Numbered from the stretch's first letter, positions 26,206 to 59,165 are shown. The stretch is DNA of 64,000 nt from Chloroflexota bacterium (GCA_009840135.1 VXOH01000131.1:3608-67607); one strand, 5' to 3'. Program-made: numbers and translations. Notes: generated from the letters alone by a model not told the origin.

Positions 26206-27756
26206 ATGTCAACTCGCAAAAACATCAAAAATATTGGTGAGGAATTAACCTTGAATAACGCCAGAAGCATTATTGAACGATTCGGCGGACAATCAGCCCT
26301 GGCCGCACTGCTGGGCAAGCGGCAGAGTACCGTGCAGCACTGGGCCAGGACCGGCAGAATACCTTCCCAGTGGCACTCCACATTGATGGAGCTGGCGGTG
26401 CAGCAGGGCGTTGCCCTGGAGCCCCGGGATTTCGTAACCTCCGAAGGTACCAGCATTGCCCCCGCCACCGGCAAGCTGGGCGTTCTGCTGGTGGGCATGG
26501 GCGCGGTATCCTCCACCTTCGTGGCCGGCGTTGAACACATCCGGCGCGGCACCGGGCAGCCGGTGGGCTCCGTGTCGCAGATGTCCACCATTCGCCTGGG
26601 CAAGCGCACCGAGCACCGCTCCCCGTTGATTCGCGACTTTGTCCCCCTGGCGGAACTGGATGATATGGTTTTCGGGGCGTGGGACCCCATTCCGGACAGC
26701 GCCTACGACGCCGCCGTAAAGGCCGGCGTGCTGGACCGGTACGAGCAGATCGAACCCGTCTCCGACTTTCTCAAGTCCGTCAACCCCATGCCGGCGGTGT
26801 TCGATAACGACTACGTAAAGCGCATCAACGGCACCAACACCCGGATGGTGGACTCCAAGCTGGGCGCGGCCGAATCCCTGCGGGAGGACATCCGGCGATT
26901 CAAGGAAGAGAACGGCTGCGACCGCCTGGTAATGATCTGGTGCGCCTCCACCGAGAAGTTCATTACCGAATCGGCGGCCCACCAGGACCTGGAAAACTTT
27001 GTCGGCGCGCTGCACGACAACAATGAAGCCATCGCCCCATCCATGATCTACGCCTATGCCGCGCTGATGGAAGGCGTTCCCTTCATCAACGGCGCCCCCA
27101 ACCTGACGGTGGACATTCCCTCCATGGAAAGGCTGGCCGCCGACCAGGGAGTGCCCATCTGCGGCAAGGACTTCAAGACGGGCCAGACCCTGGTCAAGAC
27201 CGTTATAGGGCCCATGCTCAAGGCCCGGATGCTGGGAATGGATGGCTGGTTCTCCACCAACATCCTGGGCAACCGCGACGGCGAGGTGCTGGACGAGCCC
27301 GAAAACTTCAGGACCAAGGAAGAGTCCAAGCTGGGCGTGCTGGAATACATACTGCAGCCCGACCTGTACCCCGACCTTTATTCTGACGCCTACCACAAGG
27401 TGCGTATCAACTACTACCCTCCCCGGGGCGACAACAAGGAAGGCTGGGACAACATAGACATTTTCGGCTGGCTGGGCCGGCGCATGCAGCTGAAGATTGA
27501 CTTCCTCTGCTCCGACTCCATCCTGGCCGCTCCCCTGGTGCTGGACCTGGTGCTGTTCATGGACCTGGCGAAACGGGCCGGCCTCTCGGGCATCCAGGAG
27601 TGGCTCTCCTTCTATTTCAAGAGCCCGCACCACGCCCCCAGCGTATATCCGGAACACGACCTGTTCATCCAGCAGACCAAGCTGAAGAACACCCTGCGGT
27701 GGCTGATGGGCGAGGACCAGATAACTCACCTGGGCATGGAGTACTACCGGGAGTAA
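26206..27756 (+). CDS. inositol-3-phosphate synthase with an N-terminal Cro/YdaS-like HTH extension
   Basis: Core reads KLGVLLVGMGAVSSTFVAG...NGAPNLTVD...WFSTNILGNRDGEVL...KEGWDNIDIFGWLG...FLCSDSILAAPLVLDL. The first roughly 75 aa read GGQSALAALLGKRQSTVQHWARTGRIPSQW. Confidence 0.9.
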   Translation: MSTRKNIKNIGEELTLNNARSIIERFGGQSALAALLGKRQSTVQHWARTGRIPSQWHSTLMELAVQQGVALEPRDFVTSEGTSIAPATGKLGVLLVGMGAVSSTFVAGVEHIRRGTGQPVGSVSQMSTIRLGKRTEHRSPLIRDFVPLAELDDMVFGAWDPIPDSAYDAAVKAGVLDRYEQIEPVSDFLKSVNPMPAVFDNDYVKRINGTNTRMVDSKLGAAESLREDIRRFKEENGCDRLVMIWCASTEKFITESAAHQDLENFVGALHDNNEAIAPSMIYAYAALMEGVPFINGAPNLTVDIPSMERLAADQGVPICGKDFKTGQTLVKTVIGPMLKARMLGMDGWFSTNILGNRDGEVLDEPENFRTKEESKLGVLEYILQPDLYPDLYSDAYHKVRINYYPPRGDNKEGWDNIDIFGWLGRRMQLKIDFLCSDSILAAPLVLDLVLFMDLAKRAGLSGIQEWLSFYFKSPHHAPSVYPEHDLFIQQTKLKNTLRWLMGEDQITHLGMEYYRE

Positions 27757-27871
27757 GGTGCTTGGCCAGTAAGCAGCATTGCCCAAGGGAAAGAGGACTC
27801 ATTCAGAGAGTTTCCTGGGAAACAGCGCCATCATCCCTCTCATCGCAGGACGATTGCAAAGCATTCATTGA

Positions 27872-27943
27872 ACCGCTCATGGCGAGCTTGTCGAACCATC
27901 CCGCGTTTTGGGGGCGTCCTTCGACAAGCTCAGGATGAGCGGA
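27872..27943 (+). repeat. family-A palindromic element
   Basis: accgctcatggcgagcttgtcgaaccatcccgcgttttgggggcgtccttcgacaagctcaggatgagcgga. Confidence 0.85.
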
Positions 27944-28441: not shown

Positions 28442-29221
28442 ATGGGCGATATCTACGCGTTCAAGAGCGCCTTTGTTGAGCAGCTCAAGAACGACATGCA
28501 CTGGGACGAGCTCTCGTTGTTCGTAATTACCCATGTTCCACTGGCTGCGGTGCTGGCCTGGATTGCCAGCAAGGGCTCCAGTTCCGTTCCCATTGATTAC
28601 CTCTTCGTGGGCGTCCTCCTGATGTCTATATGGAACCGGGTTTCAATCAGGGTAGGGTGGGCCATCACCGGGGACATACTGGTGGGCACTTACGATTACG
28701 TAGTAACTGCCCGCACTCCCCTGGTGGTGATCATCTTCGCCAGGGCATTGGCCCTTTCAGTGCTGGGCATCTTCTCCGGGCTGGTCCCACTCCTGGTGAT
28801 CGTATGGATTTCGGGACAGTTTATTCAAGCGTCAGAACCCGTCTTACTGGTTTTCGGCATCGTGGTAGGGGCGTTCAGCGTGCTCTCTGTGGCTGTTGTG
28901 TTCGCGCCCCTGTTCCTGCTGGTTCGGGGACGGGAGGGTTTCTTCAACGTAATCCGGCCATTGGGCGTGGTGCTGGGAGGCTTCCTCTATCCCGTGGCGT
29001 TTCTCGCCCCTGGTCTCGAAATCGTGGCTCGGGCCTTTCCGGCGGCCTGGGCCATGGATGCGGTGATCCTCGGCCTGGACTCCCAGGGAAGCCTGATGGA
29101 GGGTGCTCGGGACCTGGGCATCTGCCTGTTGATATCGCTGGCATACCTGTCCCTCACTTATGTGCTTCTGAAGAAAGTTGAGCGCCGTGTCCGCGTTGAC
29201 GGCAACATGAGGGCTTTCTAG
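28442..29221 (+). CDS. ABC-2 type transporter permease
   Basis: 259 aa, about 6 TM helices, followed by a paralogous permease and a DrrA-like ATPase. Confidence 0.75.
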   Translation: MGDIYAFKSAFVEQLKNDMHWDELSLFVITHVPLAAVLAWIASKGSSSVPIDYLFVGVLLMSIWNRVSIRVGWAITGDILVGTYDYVVTARTPLVVIIFARALALSVLGIFSGLVPLLVIVWISGQFIQASEPVLLVFGIVVGAFSVLSVAVVFAPLFLLVRGREGFFNVIRPLGVVLGGFLYPVAFLAPGLEIVARAFPAAWAMDAVILGLDSQGSLMEGARDLGICLLISLAYLSLTYVLLKKVERRVRVDGNMRAF

Positions 29222-29229
29222 GAGACGCA

Positions 29230-30015
29230 GTGACGAATTTCTTCATCCAGTCCTACCTGACCTACCGCGCCCTGTTCTTCTGGCTTAACTGGCCGTCCTA
29301 CATCGGCAACGTGTTCCTGGTACCCGTCCTCTACATAACCATGCTGCTGCTGACGGGCAGGTTCGCCAACAGCCCGCTGGACTCGGAATTCTACGTCCTG
29401 GGCATGGCGGCCTATTCCACCCCTTTCATTCTTATCTGGGGCATAACCCAGTGCAATTACTACGAACGGGTTACGGGGACCCTGGCCCACGTTCTCGGCT
29501 CCTCGGGGAACCGGTGGCTGATTTTCTGGAGCAAAGGCACGATGCATTTTCCCAACGGCCTGTTCACCGTCACCAGCAGCCTGCTGTTCGCCTGGGCCTT
29601 CATAGGCCTGGACTTTACCAATCTCAACTGGGTTACCCTGGTGGTTTCCGTTCTGTTGTTCGCCCTTTCCTGCACCGCCTTTTCGCTGTGCATCGGAATC
29701 TTCGCTATCGTCATGCGGTCATGGCTTACATTGAGCGCCACGGCATCCGGACTGCTCATTCTTTTAACCGGCGTGGTCATACCGCTGGAGGATCTACCCT
29801 TTTTCCTGCACTACGTCGGCAATGTTCTGCCCCTGACCAACGGGGTGACCGCCTTCAGGGCGGCGTTCGACGGAGCGGGGCCCATGTCCGTTGGGGACCA
29901 CCTGATATGGGAACTGGGTGTGGGAATCTCCTACGGCGTTTTGGGTTACCTGTTCTTTCTGTTTGTAGAGGCGGATGCCCGGCGCCGGGGAGCCTACGAT
30001 ACGTCCATTCTGTAG
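29230..30015 (+). CDS. ABC-2 type transporter permease
   Basis: 261 aa, about 6 TM helices. GTG start with AGGAG 5 nt upstream. Confidence 0.75.
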   Translation: MTNFFIQSYLTYRALFFWLNWPSYIGNVFLVPVLYITMLLLTGRFANSPLDSEFYVLGMAAYSTPFILIWGITQCNYYERVTGTLAHVLGSSGNRWLIFWSKGTMHFPNGLFTVTSSLLFAWAFIGLDFTNLNWVTLVVSVLLFALSCTAFSLCIGIFAIVMRSWLTLSATASGLLILLTGVVIPLEDLPFFLHYVGNVLPLTNGVTAFRAAFDGAGPMSVGDHLIWELGVGISYGVLGYLFFLFVEADARRRGAYDTSIL

Positions 30016-31011
30016 ATGCTTGAAGTTTGGAGAGAGATAGTGGTTGCTGACAGCATTAATGCCGTAGAGTGCGTCAATCTGGGCCGGGTATATTCCTCCC
30101 GCAGCGCCCTGGGACGGAGACGGGATGTAGAAGCCCTGAAAGACCTCAACCTGGAAATTCCCAAAGGATCCGTCTTTGGCCTGCTGGGACCCAACGGCGC
30201 CGGCAAGACCACCACCGTGCGCATCCTGTCCACCCTCTTGACTCCCACCTCGGGCAGAGCGCGAGTCCTGGGCTATGATGTGGAAGCGCAGGCCAAGCAG
30301 GTGCGCAGGAATACCGGGTTTATCCTCGGGGGCGAGCGGGGGCTCTATGGCCGCATCACCGGCGAGCAGAATATGCATTTCTTCGCCGCTCTGAATCACA
30401 TCAACCCCCGAGACGCCAAGCGGCGCACCCGGCAACTGCTGGAACGCGTAGGACTGGCGGAAAACGCCGGGATGGCGGTGGAGAACTACTCCAGGGGCAT
30501 GAAACAACGGCTGCACATCGCGCGAGGTCTGCTGACCGACCCTCCCGTACTCTTCATGGACGAGCCCACCATCGGCATTGACCCCGTTGGCGCCCAGGAA
30601 CTGAGGAACTACGTTCCCGAACTGGCCAGCGAGGGCAAGACCATTCTGCTCACCACCCACTACATGGCCGAGGCCGACATGCTGTGCGACACCATTGCCA
30701 TTATTGACCGGGGAGAGCTGGCGGCGGTGGGTACTCCCGGAGAAATCAAGCGCCGCTTCAGCCGGATCGGAATAGTCGAACTTACCGTCAACCGGCCCCG
30801 GGAGGAACTGGCCGGGGAAATCCTGGACCTGGAAGCCGTGGAACGAGTGGAATCAATAGCGGAAGGACCCTTTCAAAAATTGACCGTTTCCCTCCGGTTC
30901 GGGGAAGACCTTACCGACAAAATTGTGGAAATTGTCGGCACAGACAACATCGAGAGCCTGGTGTCGCGGGACCCCACCCTGGAGGAGGCGTACATCAACA
31001 TAATTCGGTGA
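30016..31011 (+). CDS. ABC transporter ATP-binding protein (DrrA/ABC-2 exporter type)
   Basis: Has Walker A GPNGAGKTT, the signature YSRGMKQRL, and Walker B VLFMDEPT. An alternative GTG start at 30040 has a GGAGAG RBS. Confidence 0.9.
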   Translation: MLEVWREIVVADSINAVECVNLGRVYSSRSALGRRRDVEALKDLNLEIPKGSVFGLLGPNGAGKTTTVRILSTLLTPTSGRARVLGYDVEAQAKQVRRNTGFILGGERGLYGRITGEQNMHFFAALNHINPRDAKRRTRQLLERVGLAENAGMAVENYSRGMKQRLHIARGLLTDPPVLFMDEPTIGIDPVGAQELRNYVPELASEGKTILLTTHYMAEADMLCDTIAIIDRGELAAVGTPGEIKRRFSRIGIVELTVNRPREELAGEILDLEAVERVESIAEGPFQKLTVSLRFGEDLTDKIVEIVGTDNIESLVSRDPTLEEAYINIIR

Positions 31012-31337: not shown

Positions 31338-31379
31338 TGCGTGAAGCTGAGAAAATCAGGTAACAAAGGAGAAACAGCT

Positions 31380-32138
31380 ATGCCGTTTTACGAGAGAGGC
31401 GATGTCCGAATCCACTACGATGAGGTCGGTTCCGGTTTCCCGCTGCTGGTGACCCCGGGCGGCGGCCTTAACTCCATCATGAGCGGCTGGCCCCGCCAGG
31501 TGTTCAATGCCATGGAGGTTTTCAAGGACGACTTCCGCTGCATCACCATGGACCAGCGCAACGCCAACGGTGGCGAGTCCACCGGGCCGGTCCAGGTGGA
31601 TGATCCCTGGGGCGCTTTCGCCGACGACCAGCTGGGGCTGATGGACCACCTGGGCATCCGGGAGTTCTTCTTCATGGGCTACTGCATCGGCGGCCCCTTT
31701 GCCATGAAGCTGATAGAGAGGGCCCCGGAGCGGGTGCTGGCGGCAGTCCTGTGCCAGCCCGTGGGTCATTCCGACAAGACACCGGACTCCATGTATGACT
31801 CGGGCACGGACATCTGGGCCCCCGAGCTCATCGCCAAGCGGCCCGACGTGACCATGGAGATTGTGGAGCAGTACCTGCATAATCTTTACCGCGTGCAGCC
31901 CGATTTCATGTACTGCGTTTCCCGGGACTTCGCCCGCAACTGCCAGACGCCGCTGCTGGTGATGCCCGACGACACTCCCTCCCATTCCTACGAAGCCGCC
32001 ATGGCCATGGCGGAACTGGCTCCCAGGGCCCAGGTAACTGCCTACCCCTGGAAGGAAGACGAGACCCTTTTCCGCGAAACCATCAACCAGGTACGCGACT
32101 TCCTCCAGGCTCACCAGCCCACCGCCGCCGCCCGCTAG
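31380..32138 (+). CDS. alpha/beta hydrolase with Cys in the nucleophile elbow
   Basis: Reads MPFYERGDVRIHYDEVGSGFPLLVTPGGG...FFFMGYCIGGPFA (G-Y-C-I-G-G, Cys codon 31683-31685). AAAGGAG RBS. Confidence 0.8.
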   Translation: MPFYERGDVRIHYDEVGSGFPLLVTPGGGLNSIMSGWPRQVFNAMEVFKDDFRCITMDQRNANGGESTGPVQVDDPWGAFADDQLGLMDHLGIREFFFMGYCIGGPFAMKLIERAPERVLAAVLCQPVGHSDKTPDSMYDSGTDIWAPELIAKRPDVTMEIVEQYLHNLYRVQPDFMYCVSRDFARNCQTPLLVMPDDTPSHSYEAAMAMAELAPRAQVTAYPWKEDETLFRETINQVRDFLQAHQPTAAAR

Positions 32139-32767: not shown

Positions 32768-35700
32768 ATGGCCACAAAGCCCAATTCGGTTTCCAGTCGC
32801 GGGGCGCAGAGCTTCCCGGGAGGCGGTGAGCCCATAGCAATTGTTGGAATGGCGTGCCGGTTCCCTGGCGCTCCGGACCTGGGCTCATTCTGGCGTTTGC
32901 TAGTAGAGGGGAAAAACTCCGTCACCGAAGCCGACCCCAATTCAGGCGTGGGTCGCATGGGTGAGCTTTTCGGTGACAGCCAGGTCAATAACCAGGCGTG
33001 CCGCTTCGGCGCCTTTGTGGATGACCTCGATCTGTTTGATGCTTCGTTCTTCCGCATTTCCCCCGTCGAGGCCGAACTCCTGGACCCGCAGCAGCGCATG
33101 ATGCTGGAGGTAAGCTGGCAGGCCCTTGAAGATGCAGGCATTGATCCCGCCCGGCTGCGGGGGAGCCGCACCGGGGTTTATACGGGAATAAGCAACGACG
33201 AATACCGGATGCTGGTGGTGGATTCCAGTAAACCCTCCGAGGCGGCTGCCTGCCTATATGCCCTGAGCGGCACCAATTTGAACGGGACCAGTGGGAGGGT
33301 ATCCTTCGTATTGGGCCTGATGGGGCCGGCAAAAGCGGTAGATGCCGCCTGTGCATCATCCCTGGTTTCCGTCCACGACGCCGTGGCAGACCTTCAGCAG
33401 GGCAAGGCGGACCTGGCCATCGCCGGCGGCGTCCAGGCGATTCTGAACGGCCGAATCTACGAACTCCGCGCCGACTCGATGATGCTGTCGCCCGATGGGC
33501 AATGCAAGGCCTTCGACGCTTCCGCCAACGGCTACGTGAGGGGCGAGGGCTGCGGCGTAGTCATCTTGAAGCGGCTCAGCGAGGCGGAGGCCGACGGCGA
33601 CCGCATCTGGGCCGTCATCCGGGGCGCGGCGGTAAATCACGGCGGGACGGGCGTGGGCCTGACCGTGCCCAACACGCCGGGCCTGGAACAGGTGATGGAA
33701 GCGGCTCTTGCCGACGCCGGCATTGAGCCCCTGGAGGTTGACTATATCGAAGCCCACGGGACCGGCACAACCGTTGGCGACCCGATCGAACTCAACGCCG
33801 TGAACGCCGTCTATGGACAGGGGAGGAACCCCAGCGAACCGCTGTTGGTGGCCTCGGTGAAGACCAACGTGGGACACCTGGAGTCCGCAGCGGGCATCGC
33901 CGGGCTGATGAAGGCAGCCCTGGTGGTAAACCAGGGCCTGATTCCCAGGCACCTGCACTTCCTAGACCCCAATCCCAGCCTGGACTGGGAAGGCCTGCCC
34001 TTGCTGGTGCCAACTGAAACGGTTGACTGGCCCGACGACCGCCAGCGACCGCGACTGGTCGGAGTCAACTCCTTCGGCATTTCCGGAACCAACTCCCACA
34101 TCCTGGTGGGGCAGCACATCTACGACGGGCAAGGGACTGACCACAAGATTTCAACCCTGGGACCCGCCAGCACGGTAAAAATCAAGCTGCCCGAAACCTT
34201 TTCCCAAGAGTCTCCGTCCAATGAGGAAGTCTTCCCGCGCCCAAAGCGAGTGCTGCCGCTGTCGGGCAAGTCGGGGGGCGCGTTGCAGGAGCTTGCCCAG
34301 CGCTACCTGGCGTGGCTCGATGATGATTCCCCGGACCAATTGAAGGACGGCCTGGCCCTTCTCGAAAAACTTTCGGACATGGCATGGACGGCGAGTATCG
34401 GCCGCAGCCACTTCGACTATCGTTCCGGCCTGGTTTACCAGGACGTTCCGGCGCTGCGGGAGGGACTCAAGGCGCTGGCCGAAACCGGTCAGACCGGCCA
34501 GACCGGCCAGCCGCCGCGGGCAGCCAGGGTGGCATTCCTCTACACCGGACAGGGAAGCCAGTGGGTCGGCATGGGACAGGCCCTCTACGAGACTGAACCG
34601 GTTGCCCGAGCCGTAATGGACGATTGCGACAGGATAGTGATGGAGGTGAGAGGCGTTTCCCTGCTGGACGTCATGTTCGGGCGGGACGAGACTGCCGGAG
34701 ACCTGGGCGACACGGCATGGGAACAGCCGGCCCTCTATGCGCTGGAGTGCGCCCTTACCGCCCTTTGGGAAAGCGTTGGAGTCCGGCCCGGCGCGGTTAT
34801 GGGACACAGCGTGGGCGAACTGGCCGCTGCCCAGGCGGCCGGCGTCTTCAGCCTGCGGGACGGCATGCGGTTTGCATTGGCCCGTGGCTCCCTGCTGTCG
34901 GCTACTGAGGCAGGGGCCATGGCCGCGGTCTTCGCCCCGAAATCCAGGGTGGCAGAGGCGGTCGAAAGGGTGAACGCCGCCTCCGGCAGCGTTGGACTCA
35001 GCGTGTCCGCCGACAACGGGCCCCAACAGGTGGTCAGCGGCCCGGCGGCGGACATCGAGGCCGTTTCCCGCCTGTTCGAGTCAGAGGGAATCCGGGCAAT
35101 CCGCCTGAACACTTCCTGGGGCTTCCACAGCGCCCTGCTGGACCCGGCCCTGGACGGTTTGGAAGCCGCCCTGGATGGGGTTCCCATACAGCACCCTTCA
35201 ATTCCCTTGGTCAGCAACCTGACGGGTCGCCAGGTGGAAGCTTCAATGGCCATGGACGGGGCCTACTGGCGGCAGCATGCCCGGCAACAGGTGGCCTTTG
35301 CCGGAGGAATCGGAACGCTGGCCGAAATGGGAATGGACCTGGTAATCGAGCTTGGCCCCCACTCGGTGCTGGGTCCCATGTCAATGCAGGCCTGGCCGGA
35401 GTCCGCCGGAGAACGGCGACTTGAGGGAGGCCCGATTGCCCTGGCAAGTCTGCGCCGGCCGCCCCGGGACGGCTCAACGCCGGAGCCGGAAAGCAGCTTC
35501 ATTGATGCGGTGGCGCAGGCCTACGAGGCCGGCCTGGACATTACTTTCGAAGGACTGTTCGCCGGCGAGGAACGCCGCCGGATTTCCCTGCCGGGTTATC
35601 CCTTCCAGCGCGAACGTTACTGGCTGCAGGGGGCCAGGAGGCGTCGGAGCGGCGGCGGGCATCCCCTGCTGGGAGAACGCCACGACTCAGCGCGGGGGGA

Positions 35701-43147: not shown

Positions 43148-43735
43148 CGCCAAATTCACGGGACAGGGGTGAGGGAGACTTGGGAGATCCTGGGACGATG
43201 CCCCTGCCCTTCCCCGAGAGTCCATACGGTGAAAATCCCTGGACGCGGGGGATGGGCTTGCTGTTGGTGACCGCCCGTTTCCGTGGGGCAGGTTCTGCCA
43301 AACCACAGCCCGGATCGCAACGCTCATAAAGCCAACCGGGATGGGGTCAGAGAAGAGGCCCACGCGATCAGTGCCAGGCGAGGAAAGAAGCGGTCCAGCA
43401 GAAGTTGAGCCCATATCCGACCATAACTCGGTCCTTTTCAATCTACACAGCGACAGGAACAACATTAGTTCGATACCCCTGCTTTCAAAGCAAGCGTTAT
43501 GGGAAAGGGTGAGTCGAAACCTGGCCTGGCGGCGGCGCCGTCAGAAGTTCGGACCGCCCCGAACTTACAAAAGCATACTCTTTCCTGTTGAATGAAAGTA
43601 GTCCTTATTAATGGTTGACGCAGGTAAGCATTAAGTATTGGTTTAAGTCAACACTTAATGCAAAAGCCGGAATTGATTCTGGCGAAAAGTTATCACTATT
43701 AGTCGGCTCCTGGGCCGCTCGCCAACCGTCTCACT

Positions 43736-45097: not shown

Positions 45098-45224
45098 TTG
45101 ACAAGTCCTCCCCGGTGTTCGCGAGACTGATGGCTAAAGGAGGCACAATACCACCTTAGTTCTGTTTCCACCAATATACATTGAATGTACACAAGTCATA
45201 ATTGATGTCGTGTAACATGGGATA

Positions 45225-45253
45225 TTGACTTATAGAAATCTTACTGTTATAAG
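45225..45253 (+). promoter_or_regulatory. candidate sigma70-type promoter for the 45314-54034 gene string
   Basis: TTGACT, 17 nt, TATAAG inside a strongly AT-rich divergent intergenic region; 60 nt before the ATG at 45314. Confidence 0.45.
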
Positions 45254-45313
45254 TATACACGTTTTACAAAAATAATCTACACTGTTGCATACTTATAGGC
45301 AATACGTAAATAT

Positions 45314-48300: not shown

Positions 48301-48496
48301 GGCCCTGGAATGCGCCGAGATCATTCACGACTACAACTATGCCCAGGTTTTGACTCTTGACCTGCTCAAGAAGGGCATGCGGATGCGGGAGGTTCCCATT
48401 TCATACTCGCGCCGCACCCGGGGCAGGTCATTTATTGGCCCAAAGTACCTCTGGCGGGTCCCGGTAAGGATGCTGCAAGAGATGCTCAGCAAATAG
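45314..48496 (+). CDS. multidomain membrane protein: flippase-like (UPF0104/LPG-synthase-TM) + extra TM block + alkaline-phosphatase-superfamily phosphodiesterase + GT2 glycosyltransferase
   Basis: The N-terminal roughly 330 aa are polytopic, UPF0104-like. About 47021-47760: IVIDGCRADRL...YPARTVSGFSSMFTG..HGM...ITADHGQG..GGHGH (NPP/PglZ-type metal and nucleophile motifs). 47826-48493: VIIPAYNETENL...VVDDGSTDGT...DADGEY (DPM1-like GT2). Confidence 0.85.
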   Translation: MNTGNTTVNAASIDEAQSVSALGATGRPPISIFRVLVSVAALVVALVTVGLLADWPLLAEALRELGKQPYLVPVLVIVYSSAFLLRAIAWKALMVSGGNTFKLLGALQAALLVNHLAPLKLGEFVRPLAAARAGVPLAEAATTTAVARVLDFVALLVIAASVGSFVSLSAGEGRWLQGLALPAVVIAGICGLLLVLRWRRLHDWLPELLRTRFDIMQSQLRQVSGRRLATAAAWTLPSWILEAVVIIVAARALGIELSLAAAISVTAFTILFQAFHITPGGIGVYEAVMTGALFAHGIPWEEGLALAVATHGLKFAYSYTIALAFSFTALVGLRRMPSLNPLNHLRGSSDGAKSASSFEVVAARLWNVLNEGKPFTPVFTLGIIALLSVPHLGDGGYWLRAAGALLALVPLFVVFYRFDFPLRLRVTLWIYVGVFLAVFRFADLTAMALILGIYLTFTIFLWGTVYYHLRIGTSWLNFTRFWRLVLENPDPTSGNFLEQIPKLTLLVLAFQILVARPTPVTYLAVEGFVLLLAITALLLHQWFFTWPPAPSMVPTTKRAINGERISRRFITIVIDGCRADRLLEANTPYIDRLRSEGVDYIDTSTVYPARTVSGFSSMFTGAPPTVHGMTSNFVPSLGVKCESIFDALRKEGLNGKLVGIAHLIDAFGHNDVETVTAVTNNDDIDNALTARAQAVIQRDDPDLLILQLLSVDQTGHARGSYNSEYLEKIEESDRIIQRFLEWCDSIGYLDEATVVITADHGQGIGIGGHGHMSPTERYVPCILWGHGVETRGVIAEPHSVMDVTATIAYFLGVAPPEQSVGQVLGIAESEADVASRPVAVIIPAYNETENLPDTLARIPRRQFPNLKVIVVDDGSTDGTARLARDHGADVVISHTLNRGLGAALRTGLAAANELNARAAVYVDADGEYPPEQIPDLLEPILQGEADYVLGSRYLGKRQGQRAVRLLGNLVFTGLLCLATGRRITDGQTGFRAFSRRALECAEIIHDYNYAQVLTLDLLKKGMRMREVPISYSRRTRGRSFIGPKYLWRVPVRMLQEMLSK

Positions 48497-48535: not shown

Positions 48536-51127
48536 GTGCAAGACCACACAGGAACACTGGGAATGTTTACCAGGCGATATCATTGGCTTGCCGGTCTGGC
48601 GTTGGCCATGTTGATGGTGCTGACGCTGGCCTGCTCGCAACAGGAGCCTGCCCCCGCAACGCAGGTAGTTGAGGTGGACTCGGGCGCCACGGCAGCCGCC
48701 GCGCAGGCCGTGGCAGCGGCGGAACAGGCCCTGGCCGCAGCCCAGCAGGCCCAGGCGGCGGCGCAGACCCAGGCCGGGTCGGCGGAAGCCGTTGCCGCCC
48801 AGGCCAGCGCGTCGGCGGAACAAGCCCTGGCGGCGGCGCAGATGGCCCAGGCGGCGGCGGAGACGCCTCGCCGGGGTGAAGACCGTCCCACCATAACCGT
48901 CATCGGTGGCGGTGGCGGCACGGCCTCGGTATCCGGCACCGGTACAGGTACCGGAACGGGCTCAGTCTCAGGTATCGGCACGGGAACTGGGACCGGTTCA
49001 GTCTCCGGCATCGGCCACCATCACGGGCACGGCACGGGCACCGGTACGGGTTCAGTATCTGGCGCCATGGCCATGATGGACAAAGGGGTGTCCGGTGGAG
49101 TTATGATCCCCACCAACCTCAGCTATGAGACCAGCGGCCCCACCAAGTCCGATGGCTACTACACTCCTACCACCAACCGGGAAATTTACCAGAAGATTTC
49201 CACGGACTACCAGGAAATTCTGAAGCTGACCAACGTGATCAAGGAAGGCAAGCCCCTGCCTGCGGCGGAGATATGGTTGCTTTATGAGGCCGGGCCCCAC
49301 ACTAGACTCGGGCCCCAGAGCCGTACCCTTCGGAGCTTTGCGACAGGGTCCACGCCTTCAACCTATTACCCTGAGTCGGCCGAGTTCTACGGGTCAGACA
49401 CCTTTCTTGACGACCCCATCGAAAATGCGGTTCGGGGCCGTGGAGAGGCAGCGGAGTACACGGATGCCCAGAAGCGCCAGGCCATAGGCAAGGGCCTGCT
49501 CAGGATTGTCTATCACTGGGCCAAGTTTTACATGATAATCGGCCAGGACCGGATGAGTTCCCGCCTGATAGACGAGGCCTGGGCCGTTTACGTGGGCGAA
49601 GAAGTAAACGGGGACTACCCTAACTCCCTCTCGGGGGTAGCCCGTTCCCGTGAAGGCAACTTCGGCCGTGAAGGGACCATTGACATACCGCTGCGCCAGG
49701 CCATGGACCGGGCCAGGCGGGCTGCAGATGACGGAAACGCCGCGGCATTGGAGACGGCAACCAACGAGGTCTTTTCCCGATTTAACGCCATCTTCTACCT
49801 GGCCACGGTAAGGTACATGGGACGGGTATTCGATGACGCCCAGGCCGGTAACCGCGACGCGCTGGGAACCCACCAGGTGGAGGCCCTGGCCTTCTACCAG
49901 TCCATCCAGCCCGATGTGGCCAAGGCGAACGCGTCAGCCGATGAGACAATCATGGCCTACCTGACCGCGGAACCCAGCCACGTTACAGCTGCGTCGCGGG
50001 ACAGGGCGTTGGCCGCCCTTAATGGGACGGCTTCCGCCCTTATGCTGATGCCGAGCGACCTGGTCACCGCGTACACCGACGATACCGGCGACGGCTCCAG
50101 CAGCGCGCCGTCTCCGGCCACGGGTGAGCTGGACCTTTCCTCCAGCGTATTCATTCCGGTTAACCTTCCCCACGAGACCGACCGCAGCGTCCCCAGCCCG
50201 TCCGACGGTTACTACCACGCCACAACCAACCGGGAGCATTACCAGAAGATTCCTTCCGACTACCAGGAAATTGTCAAGCTGGCCAACGTAATCAAAGAGG
50301 GCCATCCCCTGCCCGTGGCTGACATATTCCTGCTGTACGAGGTAGGGATGCATACCCGTATCGGCGTCCGCAGCAAGACCCTGCGGGGCTTCGCTCGCGA
50401 CCCGGAACGATCTGAGGAGTTCCCACTGGCCACGGAATTCTACGGATCCGGCAGCTTCCTTGACTCGTCAATAAGCAATGTTGTTCGTGGGCGCGGCGCA
50501 GCAGAAAACTGGACCGATGCCCAAAAGCGGCAGGCCATCAACAAGGGCATTCTCAGAATCCTCTATCACTGGTCAAAGCATTACGTGATTGGGGGCTGTG
50601 CAGACCTCGACTCGGGAGATGTTGATGAGGGATGGGGTATCTATGTGGGGCTGCCGGGAAGTGATGGCAACTATCCCTATTCACTCTCCGCCCTGGCGCG
50701 AAGTCGGGAAGGCAACTTTGGCCGGGAGGGCGCCATAGACGTTCCCCTGCGCGAGGCCTTTGAGCGGGTCCGGCAGGCAGCGGAGAACGGTGATGCCGCC
50801 GCCTGTGCTGCCGCGGCTCAAGAGGTCTATTCCCGTTACAACGCTCTCTTCTACCTGGCAACCGTGCGGTACATAGGCGTCTCATACAATGACGTGGCGG
50901 AAGGGAAAGACCCGGGCACCCACCAGGTTGAGGCGCTGGCCTTCTACCAGTCCATTCAGCCGGAAGTGGCAAACGCCAACCCTGACGCTGATGCTACCAT
51001 CGTGGCTTTCCTCGAGTCTGCACCGGACCAGGTTACCGCTCAGTCCCGGGATGCGGCCCTGGCGGCCCTCAACAGTGTCGCCGACGCACTGCTGTTGACC
51101 CAGGCTGACCTGGTGACGGGTTACTAG
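48536..51127 (+). CDS. lipoprotein with Ala/Gln-rich and Gly/Thr/His-rich linkers and two tandem copies of a roughly 320-aa domain of unknown function
   Basis: Signal plus lipobox-like LMVLTLAC. Domain copies at 49105-50075 and 50152-51124 share long collinear strings (TTNRE.YQKI.SDYQEI.KL.NVIKEG.PLP, DAQKRQAI.KG.LRI.YHW.K.Y, ARSREGNFGREG.ID.PLR, THQVEALAFYQSIQP). GTG start with GGAGGAG RBS. Confidence 0.8.
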   Translation: MQDHTGTLGMFTRRYHWLAGLALAMLMVLTLACSQQEPAPATQVVEVDSGATAAAAQAVAAAEQALAAAQQAQAAAQTQAGSAEAVAAQASASAEQALAAAQMAQAAAETPRRGEDRPTITVIGGGGGTASVSGTGTGTGTGSVSGIGTGTGTGSVSGIGHHHGHGTGTGTGSVSGAMAMMDKGVSGGVMIPTNLSYETSGPTKSDGYYTPTTNREIYQKISTDYQEILKLTNVIKEGKPLPAAEIWLLYEAGPHTRLGPQSRTLRSFATGSTPSTYYPESAEFYGSDTFLDDPIENAVRGRGEAAEYTDAQKRQAIGKGLLRIVYHWAKFYMIIGQDRMSSRLIDEAWAVYVGEEVNGDYPNSLSGVARSREGNFGREGTIDIPLRQAMDRARRAADDGNAAALETATNEVFSRFNAIFYLATVRYMGRVFDDAQAGNRDALGTHQVEALAFYQSIQPDVAKANASADETIMAYLTAEPSHVTAASRDRALAALNGTASALMLMPSDLVTAYTDDTGDGSSSAPSPATGELDLSSSVFIPVNLPHETDRSVPSPSDGYYHATTNREHYQKIPSDYQEIVKLANVIKEGHPLPVADIFLLYEVGMHTRIGVRSKTLRGFARDPERSEEFPLATEFYGSGSFLDSSISNVVRGRGAAENWTDAQKRQAINKGILRILYHWSKHYVIGGCADLDSGDVDEGWGIYVGLPGSDGNYPYSLSALARSREGNFGREGAIDVPLREAFERVRQAAENGDAAACAAAAQEVYSRYNALFYLATVRYIGVSYNDVAEGKDPGTHQVEALAFYQSIQPEVANANPDADATIVAFLESAPDQVTAQSRDAALAALNSVADALLLTQADLVTGY
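48925..49063 (+). repeat. in-frame 36-nt tandem repeat (SVSG[T/I]GTGTGTG x3) with a GHHHGH insertion
   Basis: Three units read directly; the third carries the His-rich insertion at about 49023-49045. Confidence 0.85.
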
Positions 51128-51254: not shown

Positions 51255-52562
51255 ATGACAAGGACTTGTCGCCGGAACACTCCCGGGGCTCTGTTGACCT
51301 TCGTGGGTATGTTCCTTGCGCTTACCCTGGCCCTGGCAGGCTGCGGAGGAGGGGCGCAATCCCCTGCTCAGGCCCCTGCTCAGGCGGTTACGTCGCCGGC
51401 CCCACAGACGGGAGTCTCTACCTCGGCAGCGGCGCCCACTACTGCGCCGCCGGCCGCTGCCGCCGATGGCATGTCGTCCAGCTCCGGAACTGCCGCCGAG
51501 CCGGCTTCGCCCGCGGCCGCGGCTTCACCGGCGGGCGCGCCCAGCCCTGTGGCCCAGCCGACCCAGGCTCCACCGACCCAGGCTCCGCCGGCTCCTCCCG
51601 TCGCTCCAACGGAGCCGGCAGTGGAATACGACACTCTGACCGTTTACTCGGGGCGTTCGCAGACCCTGGTCCATCCGTTGCTGTTGGCCTTCGGCGAATA
51701 CCTGGGGGTGGATATAGAAGTACGGTACGGCGGCAGTTCGTCAACCGCCGCGACTCTCCTCGAAGAGGGTGACAACACACCGGCGGACGTGGTGTTCCTA
51801 CAGGACCCCGGTTCACTGGGTAGCCTGGCGGGCGAGGGAATGCTGGGCGAATTGCCCCAGGAGACCCTGGACAAGGTTGACCCCAGGCTGCGGGACCCTA
51901 ACGGGCGCTGGATTGGAACATCGGGTCGGGCGCGGACCGTTATATACAATACCGACCTGATAGACCCGGCAACGGACCTGCCGGATTCCATCCTCGACTT
52001 CACAGACGAGGAATGGAAGGGTAGAGTGGGATGGGCTCCCTGGAACGGCTCCTTCCAGGCCTTCGTCACTGCGTTACGATTGACCAAGGGTGACGACGCA
52101 GCAAGGGACTGGCTGGAAGGTATGAGGGACAACGAGGCACGGGACTATCCCAACAATGTCTCTATCGTGCAGGCCGCCGCCAATGGCGAGGTGGAAGTGG
52201 GATTCGTCAACCACTACTACCTGGAACGCTTCCTGGCCGAATACGGACCCGACTTCAAGGCCCGCAATTATTACATAGGCAATGGGGATCCGGGGGCGCT
52301 GGTCCTGGTGGCCGGCGCCGGTATCCTGGAGGTATCGGACAACCAGCACACCGCCCAGGAGTTCGTGGACTTCCTGCTCTCCGAACCTGCTCAGCAGTAT
52401 TTCACCTCGGAGATAAAGGAATATCCGGTGGCCGCCGGTGTAGTACCTGAAGGCGATTTGCCTCCAATAGACTCTCTTAATCCTCCCGACGTTGATCTGG
52501 GCAACCTGACGGACCTGGAGGGAACACTTGATTTGCTCAGGGATGTGGGCGTTGTGCCGTGA
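51255..52562 (+). CDS. Fe3+-type ABC transporter substrate-binding lipoprotein (FbpA/AfuA-like), no cognate permease/ATPase nearby
   Basis: Lipobox LALAGC, then a roughly 90-aa Pro/Ala/Thr tether, then LTVYSGRSQTLVHPLL..F....G..IEVRYGGSS......EEG...PADVVFLQD.... Confidence 0.8.
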   Translation: MTRTCRRNTPGALLTFVGMFLALTLALAGCGGGAQSPAQAPAQAVTSPAPQTGVSTSAAAPTTAPPAAAADGMSSSSGTAAEPASPAAAASPAGAPSPVAQPTQAPPTQAPPAPPVAPTEPAVEYDTLTVYSGRSQTLVHPLLLAFGEYLGVDIEVRYGGSSSTAATLLEEGDNTPADVVFLQDPGSLGSLAGEGMLGELPQETLDKVDPRLRDPNGRWIGTSGRARTVIYNTDLIDPATDLPDSILDFTDEEWKGRVGWAPWNGSFQAFVTALRLTKGDDAARDWLEGMRDNEARDYPNNVSIVQAAANGEVEVGFVNHYYLERFLAEYGPDFKARNYYIGNGDPGALVLVAGAGILEVSDNQHTAQEFVDFLLSEPAQQYFTSEIKEYPVAAGVVPEGDLPPIDSLNPPDVDLGNLTDLEGTLDLLRDVGVVP

Positions 52563-54034
52563 TACTGAAGCTGGACTCCCTGGCTGTGTCGAGCCGGATT
52601 AAGGAAAACGAGCTGCCGCTCCTGGCGGTGGCTCTTTTCCTTTTACTTGCTACTGCCTACCTATGGTCAGTGGACATACGGGCCACCCGGGGAGCGTCCA
52701 TTACCGGCGACGAGCCTTTCTACCTGCTGACCACTCAGAGTCTGCTGGCCGACGGCGACTTCGACCTGACGAATCAGTACGAAAGCAGGTCCTACACGTC
52801 CTTCTTTGATCATCCGGACGGCCTGTGGTTCCAATCTGTTACGCGGGAAGACGGCAGCCTGCTAAGCCCTCACAATCCAGGGTTGTCCTTTCTGGTTATC
52901 CCTGGGTTCGCCCTGGGAGGCCTGCTGGGCGTCCAGGTTCAACTTCTGTTGCTGGCATCCACCACCCTGGCGCTTGCTTTTGTGCTGGCCGACCGGCTGA
53001 CCGGCCATCGCCTGACCAGCTGGGTAGTAACGCTGGGCGTGGGTTTGACCGCCACTGCCTTCATCTATTCCACGGAAATATATCCGGAATTCCCTGCCGC
53101 TCTGGCGTTGATGGTGGCGTTGCTGCTGGTCACCCGGCGGACCCGGCTGGGAGTATCCGACGGGCTGTGGCTGGCCGCTACACTCACCGTCATGTGCTGG
53201 CTGGGTATCAAGTACGCGCCCCTGGCCTTGATTGTATCCACCTACTTCCTGCTGAAAACTGACCGGACGGGGCGTATTGCCCTGGTGTCGGCAGGGACTG
53301 TGTCAGCAGTGATCTTCGCCGGGATTCACCTTTACCTCTTCGGCGGCCTGACCCCCTACGGCAATAATGCGGTTTATGCCCAGTGGAACACAGTGGAGAT
53401 TCTGGCGGGACATATTGAATTTGGGGAGAGGTACTACCGGGTGTGGGGCATATTTATAGACCGCCAGTTTGGAGTTGGCCGTTGGGCGCCCCTGCTGCTG
53501 GCGGCAGTGCCCGGCCTGGCGCTGCTGGCAGTGGGCAAAGGGGCCATGAAGCTGGTCCTGGCCCTGGCTCTGGCCCAGTTGCTCATGGCAACCTTCGTAG
53601 CCATCACGATGATGGGGTGGTGGTTCGCCGGACGCACCATGCTGACGGTCCTGCCCCTGTTCGCCGTGCCCATTACGCTAGTCGCCGCGAGAAGCCCCCT
53701 GTGGGGAAGGGTTGGCGTTGCGTTGCTGGGATGCTACTCCCTGGCAATTACCGTGGGTCTGGCCTCGGCCGCCCATGCCGGGGAAGTCACCATCGCCGTG
53801 GACCCCTTCGACATGGCCTTCCCACCCTTCCAGGGGCTGGCGGGACTGTTCCCCCTGTACACATTGTGGACTACGGAGACCTGGTGGTTGACCTTCTTCT
53901 GGCTGACCCTGGCATTGCTGGCAACCGGAAGCATGGTATGGAAAGACATCTCTTCAAGAGTGGCAAGGGTTAACTTGCGAGAGTGGCGACGACCCCGACG
54001 CGCTCTTAACTTTCGCGGCAACACCATCACCTGA
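52559..54034 (+). CDS. polytopic membrane protein, putative GT-C fold (ArnT/PMT-like) glycosyltransferase
   Basis: More than 10 TM helices. The first extracytoplasmic loop has ITGDEPFYLLTTQSLLADGDFDLTNQY (acidic DE/DxD-type loop). GTG overlaps the upstream TGA. Confidence 0.6.
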   Translation: MILKLDSLAVSSRIKENELPLLAVALFLLLATAYLWSVDIRATRGASITGDEPFYLLTTQSLLADGDFDLTNQYESRSYTSFFDHPDGLWFQSVTREDGSLLSPHNPGLSFLVIPGFALGGLLGVQVQLLLLASTTLALAFVLADRLTGHRLTSWVVTLGVGLTATAFIYSTEIYPEFPAALALMVALLLVTRRTRLGVSDGLWLAATLTVMCWLGIKYAPLALIVSTYFLLKTDRTGRIALVSAGTVSAVIFAGIHLYLFGGLTPYGNNAVYAQWNTVEILAGHIEFGERYYRVWGIFIDRQFGVGRWAPLLLAAVPGLALLAVGKGAMKLVLALALAQLLMATFVAITMMGWWFAGRTMLTVLPLFAVPITLVAARSPLWGRVGVALLGCYSLAITVGLASAAHAGEVTIAVDPFDMAFPPFQGLAGLFPLYTLWTTETWWLTFFWLTLALLATGSMVWKDISSRVARVNLREWRRPRRALNFRGNTIT

Positions 54035-54035
54035 A

Positions 54036-54959
54036 CTACGGCCGCGCCAGCCCCTCGCTGGCCAGCAGGCCTTTCATCCCCTGGGCGAAGGGAATCCGGG
54101 GCTGCCACCCGATAAGCTCCCTGGCCCTGGAGTTATCGGCAGACTTGCGAAACTCCTCATAATCGCCCCTGGGGTTGGGGAGAATATGCGCTACCGGGCC
54201 TCCAATAATGGCAGCTATGTCGTTAACCGACGTTTCTTCTACCGGCCCAATATGCAGCGCGATATGCTGGCCCGTGGGCAGTTCAGCGGCGGCGGCGAGA
54301 AGATTGGCCTCGACCACATCGGACACGTGGGTATAACCGCGGGTCTGGTTCCCGTCGCCGTAGATCGTGAGGGGCTCTTTCAGTCGCCGCATATGCAGGA
54401 ACTTGGGAATTACCAACGGGTATGCACCGCCGGCACGCTGCCGTGGCCCGTACACGTTGAAGTAACGCAGGGAGATAATCCGCATATCGAAGAGCCTGGC
54501 GTACATTTCGGCATACCGCTCACCGACCAGCTTCTGCACCGCGTAGGGAGACAGGGGATTGGGTCTCATGTCCTCGCGCATGATGTGGCATTGCCCCTGG
54601 TGGCCATAGACGCTGGAAGAGGAGGAATTAACTACCCTGCTGACCCCGTTGAGGCGAGCCGCCTGGAGAACATTGAGGGTTCCGGTGACATTCACATGGT
54701 GGGTGCCCACCGGGTCGCTGACCGAGCGCTCCACCCGGGCCCAGGCCGCCGTATGGAATAACCATTCCGCCCCCTTGGTGGCCGATATCAGCATCTCCAG
54801 GTCAGTTACGGTTCCCTCCAACAGGGAGACCTGTGGATTCAGGAAGGAATTATCACCGGTAGAAAGGTCGTCCACCACCACTTCGTGCCCGAGTTGGACC
54901 AGTCGGTCAGCCAGGTGGGAACCAATAAAGCCACAGCCGCCGGTTACAACACACTTCAT
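54036..54959 (-). CDS. NAD-dependent epimerase/dehydratase (UDP-sugar epimerase or UDP-glucuronate decarboxylase-like)
   Basis: Reads VTGGCGFIGSHLADRL, catalytic SPYAVQK (YxxxK), FNVYGPRQ. Confidence 0.9.
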   Translation of the reverse strand: MKCVVTGGCGFIGSHLADRLVQLGHEVVVDDLSTGDNSFLNPQVSLLEGTVTDLEMLISATKGAEWLFHTAAWARVERSVSDPVGTHHVNVTGTLNVLQAARLNGVSRVVNSSSSSVYGHQGQCHIMREDMRPNPLSPYAVQKLVGERYAEMYARLFDMRIISLRYFNVYGPRQRAGGAYPLVIPKFLHMRRLKEPLTIYGDGNQTRGYTHVSDVVEANLLAAAAELPTGQHIALHIGPVEETSVNDIAAIIGGPVAHILPNPRGDYEEFRKSADNSRARELIGWQPRIPFAQGMKGLLASEGLARP

Positions 54960-59158: not shown

Positions 59159-59165
59159 CGCCTTT

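Follow-up and report, generated by a model that had tools for sequence, protein, structure and literature searches.

A putative lipid-linked glycosylation module among ferric-iron capture genes of a sponge-associated Chloroflexota bacterium, next to an apparently separate polyketide synthase block

The polyprenyl-phosphate systems GtrA/GtrB/Gtr, ArnC/ArnEF/ArnT, CsbB/GtcA/YfhO and PpgS/Rv3632/Rv3779 share a design in which a DPM1/GtrB/ArnC-like family 2 glycosyltransferase (GT2), a flippase candidate and a glycosyltransferase of the GT-C fold are encoded together. In actinobacterial O-mannosylation (Ppm1/Pmt), a synthase made of a membrane domain fused to a GT2 is paired with a GT-C enzyme that carries an Asp-Glu motif in its first outside loop; this system mannosylates lipoprotein linkers, and its substrates include lipoproteins and solute-binding proteins (SBPs). 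Here we describe a related gene module in a 64,000-nucleotide stretch of a Chloroflexota bacterium (GCA_009840135.1, VXOH01000131.1:3608-67607), a metagenome-assembled genome (MAG) from a sponge metagenome; this whole stretch is hereafter called the window. The interval 26206-54959 of the window had been read in an original prediction as one island of about 29 kb for envelope lipid or glycolipid assembly. Our analysis makes it very probable that the interval consists of juxtaposed independent units rather than one lipid island. Only one of them, comprising a UDP-glucose dehydrogenase (Ugd), a multidomain fusion protein, Fea1-like and FbpA-like lipoproteins, a GT-C candidate and an epimerase, is an ancient functional unit. 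We consider it fairly probable that there are three such units and that the conserved one is the dedicated lipid-linked glycosylation system of a ferric-iron capture apparatus.

This module shares with the polyprenyl-phosphate systems the co-encoded GT2, flippase candidate and GT-C candidate, and some of its relatives use a true GtrA protein. It differs in that the flippase candidate is a PF03706 domain fused N-terminally to the GT2, the Dehalococcoidia form adds a phosphodiesterase domain of the NPP type that is predicted to be cytoplasmic, the GT-C candidate belongs to no curated family, and the whole system is embedded in ferric-iron uptake operons. The resemblance to actinobacterial O-mannosylation lies in the fused membrane-domain/GT2 synthase, in the Asp-Glu motif of the first outside loop of the GT-C candidate and in the candidate acceptors, which are Ser/Thr-rich lipoprotein linkers including that of an SBP; in contrast, the window GT-C candidate falls outside the PMT family, and the module appears to be dedicated and co-encoded with its presumed substrates rather than general. 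Like the flippase domain of MprF, the membrane part of the fusion protein begins with about eight transmembrane (TM) helices that precede a cytoplasmic catalytic part, but the aminoacyl-phosphatidylglycerol synthase domain of MprF is missing and a phosphodiesterase and a GT2 are carried instead. The iron genes are closest to the FbpABC/HitABC transporters and the Fea1/ISIP2a phytotransferrins: the window SBP is FbpA/HitA-like, the duplicated lipoprotein is Fea1-related, and relatives carry FbpB and FbpC in the operon, whereas the module proteins are bacterial and lipid-anchored, have Ser/Thr stalks and invariably come with glycosylation genes. As a mechanism, lipid-linked glycosylation of the Gtr/Arn/Pmt type is already known; what appears to be new is a GT-C family for which no curated model exists, the domain make-up of the fusion protein, its cytoplasmic NPP-type domain and, above all, the recurrent embedding in Fea1/FbpABC operons. 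A limited keyword search of the literature, pairing Fea1 or FbpA with glycosyltransferase or Chloroflexi, returned no description of this association.

The gene list of the window was drawn from an open reading frame (ORF) listing combined with Pfam and NCBIfam scans. Every gene named in the original prediction was found in its place, so that this part of it stands, but an FbpA/HitA-type gene at 51255-52562 and the interleaving of iron-uptake genes had been missed. Synteny was then assessed with the fusion protein, encoded between the polyketide synthase (PKS) and the GT-C candidate, as the anchor. The 80 anchored loci came from species-representative genomes, all of them Dehalococcoidia/Chloroflexota MAGs, and were examined both by tblastn with every window protein and by unbiased ORF clustering, with agreeing results. 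Core counts refer to the 61 genomes or loci that extend 7 kb or more to each side of the fusion gene. The fusion, Fea1-like, FbpA-like and GT-C-like genes occurred together in 56 of these 61, and in 51 they stood in the same co-directional order. Orthologues of the two accessory genes, accepted at 40% identity or above, were near the fusion gene in 29/61 genomes for Ugd and in 22/61 for the short-chain dehydrogenase/reductase (SDR). The PKS, the inositol-phosphate synthase and both ABC-2 permeases were found in none of the 61 full-flank genomes and were absent from all 80 fusion-anchored loci.

The boundary between these two groups of genes could be placed precisely. In tblastx comparisons with the closest relatives, loci L002 and L003 (fusion proteins 87% and 81% identical), the sequences were colinear from window position 43,703-43,706 to beyond 58 kb, and nothing upstream of this stretch in either locus matched the window. 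Because colinearity starts at 43.70 kb without matches upstream, the breakpoint lies in the non-coding gap of about 590 nt that separates the stop codon of the PKS from the 3' end of Ugd (43148-43735, no credible ORF). In L003, a ferritin gene and an FbpC-like ATPase gene stand upstream of Ugd, at the position that the PKS block occupies in the window. Only one genome, the same-species relative L088 (87-93% nucleotide identity), repeats the order synthase, ABC-2 genes, hydrolase and PKS. The co-localisation is therefore real in these two genomes, but it is not conserved in wider relatives, and since it does not extend beyond the same-species level it provides no evidence for one functional island.

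The proposal that the whole 26-55 kb interval is one island, in which the PKS would supply an acyl chain, the synthase inositol phosphate, the sugar genes a glycan and the ABC-2 exporter the export of a surface glyco/phospho-inositol lipid, draws on the adjacency and mostly shared direction of the genes in the window and L088, and its enzymology is plausible gene by gene. We now regard it as extremely unlikely. The PKS, synthase and permeases lie beside the fusion and GT-C genes in 0/80 related genomes, a synteny break separates the PKS from Ugd, and an insertion sequence (IS) and an indel occur within the left block of L088. In addition, no CDP-alcohol phosphatidyltransferase or other inositol-lipid gene was present among the ORFs scanned across the window, and the glycosylation genes are linked to iron genes instead. 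A common pathway for the PKS, synthase and ABC-2 genes, as originally suggested, is not supported, as PKS orthologues and a near-identical synthase occur in unrelated contexts. Homologues of the left half thus proved to be scattered and non-syntenic in relatives, whereas the right-hand module is syntenic.

The fusion protein (1060 aa; 45314-48496, plus strand; PF03706, E = 2.5e-35; PF01663, 1.6e-23; PF00535, 1.2e-27) has four parts. The first is an MprF-type, flippase-like TM domain (LPG_synthase_TM; aa 39-317, nt 45428-46264; PF03706 at 122.8 bits against a gathering threshold of 33.4), and the second consists of six further TM helices (aa ~375-544, by hydrophobicity). They are followed by an NPP/alkaline-phosphatase-type domain (aa ~568-823, nt 47015-47782; PF01663, with PbgA/YejM as Foldseek relatives) and by a polyprenyl-phosphate GT2 (aa ~837-1047, nt 47822-48454; PF00535). 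The GT2 matched the dolichyl-phosphate-mannose-synthase-type structure 5mlz (DPMS, 8.8e-21) and ArnC (1e-11) in sequence, and its top Foldseek matches were ArnC, DPMS and GtrB; it scored below the equivalog cutoffs of AglJ (105 against 325 bits), PpgS (80 against 370) and ArnC (49 against 529). Among 37 sequences, residues D575, T611, D712, H716, D759, H760, H769 and H771, which are all of the metal and nucleophile residues of the NPP-type domain, were invariant, as were D873 and the DxD residues D923 and D925 of the GT2. Hydrophobicity gives a topology of eight TM helices in the PF03706 domain, a Lys/Arg-rich loop and six more TM helices ahead of the NPP-type and GT2 domains; because no TM segment lies between these last two domains, both should be cytoplasmic. 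The NPP-type domain was present in only 6 of 24 distant metagenome loci (see below) and is therefore a lineage-specific addition.

The next membrane protein of the module (491 aa; 52559-54034, plus strand; about 11 hydrophobic segments) gave no Pfam, NCBIfam or PDB phmmer match, and a 17-sequence profile of its family also returned nothing from the PDB at E up to 10. It is not a PMT by sequence, as PF02366 was reached only at E 5 and in only 1 of the 17 members. Structure prediction was needed because no sequence search had identified any family. The top 14 Foldseek matches of its AlphaFold2 model (pTM 0.75) were all GT-C enzymes, among them AftB, ArnT, AglB, ALG3, AftA, DPY19, Pmt4, AftD and ALG9. 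The motif D51-E52-P53-x-Y55 together with D65 and D69, directly after the first TM helix and in the first extracytoplasmic loop, was invariant in 27 sequences of 24-52% identity. When 1.84 billion representatives (clustered at 50% identity) were searched with a profile, 1,967 relatives were recovered at the cutoff of E 1e-10. A Pfam scan of ten longer relatives revealed a series of domain fusions: LPG_synthase_TM with the GT-C-like domain (P0389), the GT-C-like domain with a GT2 (P0412, with a GtrA-family flippase gene downstream), the GT-C-like domain with both LPG_synthase_TM and GT2 (P0440), and an epimerase with the GT-C-like domain (P0469).

These fusions are the strongest evidence for three-component glycosylation, and together with homology and predicted fold they make it highly likely that the right-hand module is such a system. 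By their association with GT2, flippase-like domains and GtrA, the relatives suggest a polyprenyl-phosphate sugar as the putative donor of the GT-C candidate. In loci L092 and L135, GtrA adjoins the GT-C and GT2 genes; because GtrA takes the place of the MprF-type domain there, the two appear to be interchangeable partners, which supports the idea that the PF03706 domain acts as a flippase. The part of the original prediction in which a GT2 loads polyprenyl phosphate, a flippase-like domain moves the product across the membrane and a GT-C enzyme transfers the sugar outside thus holds for this module. Alternatively, the 491-aa protein could serve the Fea1/FbpA iron-uptake system as a transporter or as a subunit that binds lipid or acts as a scaffold. 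It matches no GT-C family by sequence, its gene directly follows fbpA-fbpB in many loci, and the Foldseek match at rank 15 was a subunit of the GPI transamidase, a complex whose PIG-U subunit is an example of a non-catalytic protein with the GT-C fold. The invariance of D51, E52, D65 and D69 in the first outside loop argues against this explanation, as does the recurrent fusion or adjacency to polyprenyl-phosphate GT2, flippase-like domains, GtrA and epimerase, which is sensible only for a user of lipid-linked sugar, and we consider a non-transferase very unlikely.

Two lipoprotein genes lie between the fusion gene and the GT-C candidate, and all four genes are co-directional. The first (48563-51127, plus strand, with an alternative start at 48536) encodes a tandem Fea1/phytotransferrin-like lipoprotein that matched NF038033 in two stretches (2.2e-53). 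Its lipobox Cys at aa 24 is followed by an Ala/Gln-rich segment, the motif GEDRPTITVI (nt 48875), a Gly-Thr/Gly-Ser stalk and two Fea1-like domains (nt ~49154-50062 and 50195-51112). Its NF038033 score (181 bits) was below the cutoff of 250, and no Pfam match was obtained at E up to 0.001; the syntenic protein of locus L067, to which it is 29% identical (E 1e-22), passed PF07692 (2.4e-30, 106 bits against 25). PF07692 is the domain of algal FEA1 and of the diatom phytotransferrin ISIP2A (PMC7966952). In the window protein, a His-rich insert, GHHHGHG, interrupts the Gly-Thr stalk (48990-49060, aa ~150-175); in most relatives, His residues are missing there or at most scattered. The second gene (51255-52562, plus strand) encodes an FbpA/HitA-type ferric-iron binding lipoprotein (7w3w, E 8e-80; HitA, 5e-63), which aligned end to end with solved Fe(III)-binding SBPs over 306 residues (E 8e-80 to 3e-80) with N-H-Y-Y against N-N-Y-Y, so that the Tyr-Tyr pair is kept; it has the lipobox LAGC and a linker of about 95 aa rich in Pro, Ala, Ser and Thr. 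The fbpA stop codon overlaps the start of the GT-C gene by 4 nt.

The association of glycosylation and iron genes extended well beyond the closest relatives. FbpB and FbpC were co-encoded with FbpA in loci L059, L089 and L091 and in many metagenome loci, and further iron genes were present in 35/61 loci of at least 20 kb. The gene order differed among these loci: FbpA, ferritin, ferrochelatase, fusion, Fea1, truncated Ugd-like gene and GT-C in L067 (Tepidiformaceae); an FbpB-type permease following GT-C in L059, also from Dehalococcoidia; and, outside Dehalococcoidia, FbpC, a 195-aa ORF, P0440, FbpA and FbpB in L089 (76% GC); Fea1, FbpA, FbpB, FbpC and P0389 in L091; and P0469, FbpA-like and FbpB-like in L093. 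In L089 (7939-9312) and L091 (10469-11857), a gene for an FAD-dependent protein resembling amine oxidases and phytoene desaturases also stands beside the operon, with no counterpart in the window. A metagenome scan with a diverse GT-C alignment gave another 80 loci, 24 of which had adequate flanks; with near-duplicates among them, so that the counts are upper bounds, GT2 was present in 22/24, the LPG_synthase_TM domain (PF03706) in 19/24 and Fbp or Fea1 genes in 20/24. Where the GT-C identity was below 40%, GT2 was found in all 16 loci, PF03706 in 13 and iron genes in 12. A recurrent arrangement was Fea1, GT2-LPG_synthase_TM, FbpA-FbpB-GT-C, SDR and Ugd, and the embedding of glycosylation genes among iron genes persisted down to about 30% identity. 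From this gene content and synteny, the module is likely to be functionally tied to Fea1/Fbp iron uptake.

We propose that the module would work as follows. At the cytoplasmic face, the GT2 of the fusion protein would move a hexose or hexuronic acid onto polyprenyl phosphate, with the UDP-sugar donor coming from Ugd and the 4-epimerase where these are present; in view of the Ugd association, the sugar may not be mannose. The N-terminal MprF-type domain, or GtrA in some relatives, would flip the lipid-linked sugar, and the GT-C enzyme, translationally coupled to fbpA, would pass the sugar to an extracytoplasmic acceptor. This acceptor would be the Ser/Thr stalk of the Fea1-like lipoprotein, joined by the Pro/Ala/Ser/Thr linker of FbpA in genomes that have one. 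Both lipoproteins would capture Fe(III) on the outer side of the membrane and deliver it to the FbpBC permease and ATPase, which are encoded inside the operon in relatives and would be encoded elsewhere in this genome.

The motif GEDRPxIxVI was found in the Fea1-like genes of 64 of 81 Dehalococcoidia sources, and in 58 of these 64 it is followed by at least ten residues of (G/A/V)(S/T) repeats; the median content of the following 120 residues is 34.5 Ser+Thr. Nearly all distant metagenome Fea1 lipoproteins with a complete N terminus also have a Ser/Thr stalk, mostly within a common plan of lipobox, short conserved acidic motif (GDDDGGSVRDL or GEDRPG), about 35-100 residues of SG/SA/GT repeats and the Fea1 domain. 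By analogy with mannosylated lipoprotein linkers, we tentatively suggest that the Ser/Thr-repeat stalk may be the O-glycosylation acceptor. The FbpA linker was rejected as a universal acceptor: it measures 31-105 aa at 74% identity or above and only 2-7 aa in more distant relatives, with one exception of 43 aa in a relative of 66% identity.

A serious rival explanation accepts the three-component system as genuine and assigns to it a non-protein acceptor (a membrane lipid, lipoglycan or wall polymer), possibly decorated with uronic acids, with the iron genes sharing only regulation or an envelope need. Lipids or polymers are the targets of most such systems characterised so far (Arn, Gtr, CsbB/YfhO and mycobacterial PpgS/Rv3779), which counts in favour of such an acceptor. 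So do the frequent association with Ugd (29/61 genomes), the small size and short loops of the GT-C candidate, and the 4/16 distant loci without nearby iron genes. On the other hand, the glycosylation genes are interleaved and translationally coupled with fea1, fbpA and fbpB, and remain so through rearrangements down to about 30% identity, and the Ser/Thr stalk recurs on the co-encoded Fea1 lipoproteins. For these reasons we regard a non-protein acceptor as unlikely, though to be taken seriously, and retain the dedicated iron-capture system as the preferred reading.

Several observations weigh against this preferred reading. Neither FbpB, FbpC nor a ferritin gene is present in the window, and an Fbp or Fea1 gene was not within reach in 4 of the 16 distant loci; near-duplicate loci inflate the metagenome counts. 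A Fur/IdeR-type operator could not be recognized upstream of the fusion gene, and k-mer enrichment over 81 upstream regions yielded only the -35 hexamer TTGACA and its flanks. The stalk is unspecific as evidence, since monoderm lipoproteins commonly have Ser/Thr-rich linkers, and the more distant Dehalococcoidia lack the FbpA linker. The GT-C model is of medium confidence (pLDDT 68, loops below 50), and its Foldseek scores were weak (E 0.01-0.5, TM-score 0.33-0.48, at a probability of 0.97-1.0). The model of the fusion protein is poor (pLDDT 63, pTM 0.42) and was used for domain-level Foldseek searches only, which leaves its topology to be argued from hydrophobicity. More generally, the link of these proteins to glycosylation and iron is proposed from sequences, synteny and models: the analysis shows gene content, synteny, domain fusions, the modelled fold and the conservation of catalytic residues and of the stalk, and from these the nature of the sugar, the flipping step, the acceptor and the part played by the NPP-like domain are inferred.

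In place of a tempting novel lipid pathway, the analysis offers a testable association that is far more widely distributed. It places a large uncharacterised GT-C family (about 2,000 representatives at 50% identity) in a genomic context, with a candidate substrate, and gives the bacterial relatives of algal phytotransferrins a proposed set of partners in FbpABC and dedicated glycosylation. If true, the module would be one of the rare protein glycosylation systems that are operon-encoded and dedicated to a substrate, and it would suggest an iron-capture mechanism for abundant marine and sponge-associated Chloroflexota. Besides Dehalococcoidia, loci of this type occur on unassigned contigs of high GC (68-76% G+C) and on other metagenomic contigs. 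It may be, though we consider it less likely than not, that they form a widespread class of ferric-iron uptake loci in which Fea1-like and FbpA proteins are serviced by their own lipid-linked glycosylation, with glycosylation of the stalk, possibly by uronic acids, being required for surface iron capture without an outer membrane.

Two accessory genes flank the core of the module. Ugd (43736-45097, minus strand) encodes a UDP-glucose/nucleotide-sugar 6-dehydrogenase with three UDPG_MGDP_dh domains (TIGR03026, 1.3e-107); the gene is divergent from the fusion gene and only facultatively part of the module. The intergenic region between them (45098-45313) is strikingly AT-rich for this genome and contains three ACTTATAG-like words, two of which form an inverted repeat. 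The second accessory, likewise facultative, is the NAD-dependent, sugar-nucleotide 4-epimerase-like SDR (54036-54959, minus strand; PF01370, 1.1e-55). Its best solved relatives were UDP-hexose/HexNAc 4-epimerases (1e-52 to 1e-42), which scored better than UXS (3e-31), and the assignment as a UDP-glucuronate decarboxylase in an Arn/UXS scheme was rejected on that ground. The Arn-like sugar logic that had been proposed for the island survives in the GT2, flippase and GT-C components and fails for the rest: the window has no equivalents of ArnA, ArnB, ArnD or ArnE/F, and thus no ArnA-type decarboxylase. The module is not an Arn pathway: aminotransferase, formyltransferase and deformylase are all lacking, and its SDR resembles 4-epimerases. 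In two distant loci, L067 (14585-15397) and L059 (15846-16637), a truncated Ugd-like gene of 263-270 aa lies between Fea1 and the GT-C or SBP gene; its product retains the central domain and part of the NAD domain and lacks the UDP-binding domain.

At the left end of the interval, the inositol-3-phosphate synthase (26206-27756, plus strand; PF07994, 1.6e-96; PF01658, 2e-31) is a separate, housekeeping-type unit outside the glycosylation module. In locus L085, a copy at least 90% identical has kept the upstream neighbours found in the window and is followed by a HAD hydrolase gene and infC-rpmI-rplT, without the ABC-2 genes or the PKS. The synthase ORF carries an N-terminal, helix-turn-helix-like 'carph-isopro' domain at aa 20-71 (NF046037, 4e-18; a YdaS/Cro-like Pfam match was weak). 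No stop codon separates this domain from the enzyme domain (26206-26480, aa 1-90), and the NCBI annotation gives a shorter product of 456 aa. The extension seems to be conserved, because gene calls for relatives of 90% identity or more give 501-518 aa.

The remaining unit would be a strain-level insertion made of an ABC-2 exporter, a Cys-hydrolase and a Sup-like iterative PKS, which would most likely make methyl-branched fatty acyl chains. All of its genes are on the plus strand. The exporter comprises two permeases, each with 6-7 hydrophobic segments (28442-29221, ABC2_membrane weak at E 0.0014; 29230-30015, 2.4e-12), and a drrA-like ATPase (30016-31011; ABC_tran, 2.6e-28; drrA-like, 6.6e-83). 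They are followed by an alpha/beta hydrolase (31341-32138; Abhydrolase_1, 3.3e-12) with a cysteine in the nucleophile elbow GYCIGG at aa 113. As for hallmarks of insertion around the PKS block, no tRNA gene and no Rfam family was detected in the window, and the composition was not clearly foreign; the one IS element belongs to the relative L088 and not to the window. In L088, this IS (a DDE_Tnp_1 transposase; L088 12539-13998, window ~30980) lies between the ATPase and the hydrolase, and a further gene for a 214-aa S-adenosylmethionine-dependent methyltransferase lies between the synthase and permease 1 (L088 8417-9494, window 27766-27939). Because L088 differs by these two elements, the left block is structurally plastic.

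Within this block, the exporter, hydrolase and PKS might form a small functional cassette, in which the PKS would make a methyl-branched acyl chain, the hydrolase would release it and the ABC-2 system would export the chain or a derivative. The genes are neighbouring and co-directional in both the window and L088, the PKS has no thioesterase or reductase release domain, and a PKS homologue of about 50-60% identity in L084 is flanked by genes for a hydrolase, an acyl carrier protein (ACP) and a phosphopantetheinyl transferase (PPTase). Yet the PKS orthologues of L082-L084 lack ABC-2 genes, the hydrolase of L084 is non-orthologous, and the IS separates the ATPase from the hydrolase in L088. The only hydrolase orthologue near a fusion gene (L019, 73% identity) stands beside an SDR and has no neighbouring PKS. 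We therefore hold a dedicated cassette to be rather unlikely, and the insertion as a whole remains distinct from the conserved glycosylation and iron unit in the preferred reading.

The PKS itself is a type I enzyme of 3459 aa (32768-43147, plus strand) with the Pfam domain order ketosynthase (KS), acyltransferase (AT), dehydratase, C-methyltransferase (cMT), enoylreductase, ketoreductase, ACP, KS and inactive AT, that is, a fully reducing, C-methylating single module with a terminal KS/inactive-AT didomain. Motifs of the first KS (C/H/H at nt 33341, 33749 and 33866) and the first AT (GHSVG, 34802) are intact; those of the cMT and ACP lie at 37262 and 40394. The second KS (41105) still has its Cys and two His residues, but HGTGT is replaced by HAVGS, and the second AT has no active serine because ADGFGW (42557) stands in place of GHSxG. 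Neither an ACP nor a release domain follows the second AT in the terminal didomain (40625-43147, aa 2620-3459). Orthologues of about 70% identity with identical domain order occurred in related genomes, in a different context each time, and the layout including the terminal didomain was kept in L082-L084, where the neighbours of the window PKS were not repeated. The L082 PKS gene and the fusion gene of the same contig (L039) are about 0.87 Mb apart; in L084, genes for a free-standing ACP and a PPTase are downstream of the PKS.

With the C-terminal ACP-KS-AT segment as query, PKS homologues were found in sponge MAGs of Gemmatimonadota, Nitrospira, Caldilineaceae, Latescibacteria and Rhodospirillales. 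Monomodular PKSs of the Sup ('sponge symbiont ubiquitous') group have been described, with mid-chain methyl-branched fatty acids as their proposed products (PMC4245539, PMC9864124, PMC3908369). The window PKS shares with them a single fully reducing module with a C-methyltransferase, a sponge-associated host and homologues across many symbiont phyla; both this multi-phylum distribution in sponge MAGs and the single methylating module agree with the published account of the group. It differs in its additional terminal KS/inactive-AT didomain and in that orthologues also occur in free-living Dehalococcoidia MAGs. The label comes from likeness to published descriptions, and we hold with moderate confidence that the PKS is Sup-like and makes methyl-branched acyl chains. 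It would then be a further methyl-branching synthase of a sponge symbiont, a group whose products are still proposals. A Na+/H+ exchanger-CBS gene directly follows the PKS orthologue in L082 (12939-14642), and a gene with the same domains is found in the window at 6613-8310 (minus strand), 24 kb upstream of the PKS, a placement that hints at rearrangement around the PKS.

Downstream of the module, a remnant of a second FbpA-type gene, probably a decayed paralogue, was recognized at 56653-56952 (plus strand; tblastn, 45% identity over 100 aa, SBP residues 135-234); the gene is intact at the same position in L002 (17067-17984) and L003 (20930-21870). It is followed by a gene for a conserved 242-aa protein (56975-57703, minus strand) with five hydrophobic segments, taken as TM helices, and no Pfam match, which is near the module in 34/80 loci and often beside a second fbpA or an HTTM gene. 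The next four genes, all on the minus strand, make up a second iron-associated cluster (57710-62923) that is near the fusion gene in 16-23 of the 80 loci: an HTTM (vitamin-K-carboxylase-like) protein (57710-59158; PF05090, 1.9e-78), an imelysin (59166-60290), a di-haem oxidoreductase (60259-61680; PF06537, 2.3e-103) and a second imelysin (61691-62923), the two imelysins matching PF09375 at 8.4e-40 and 3.5e-70.

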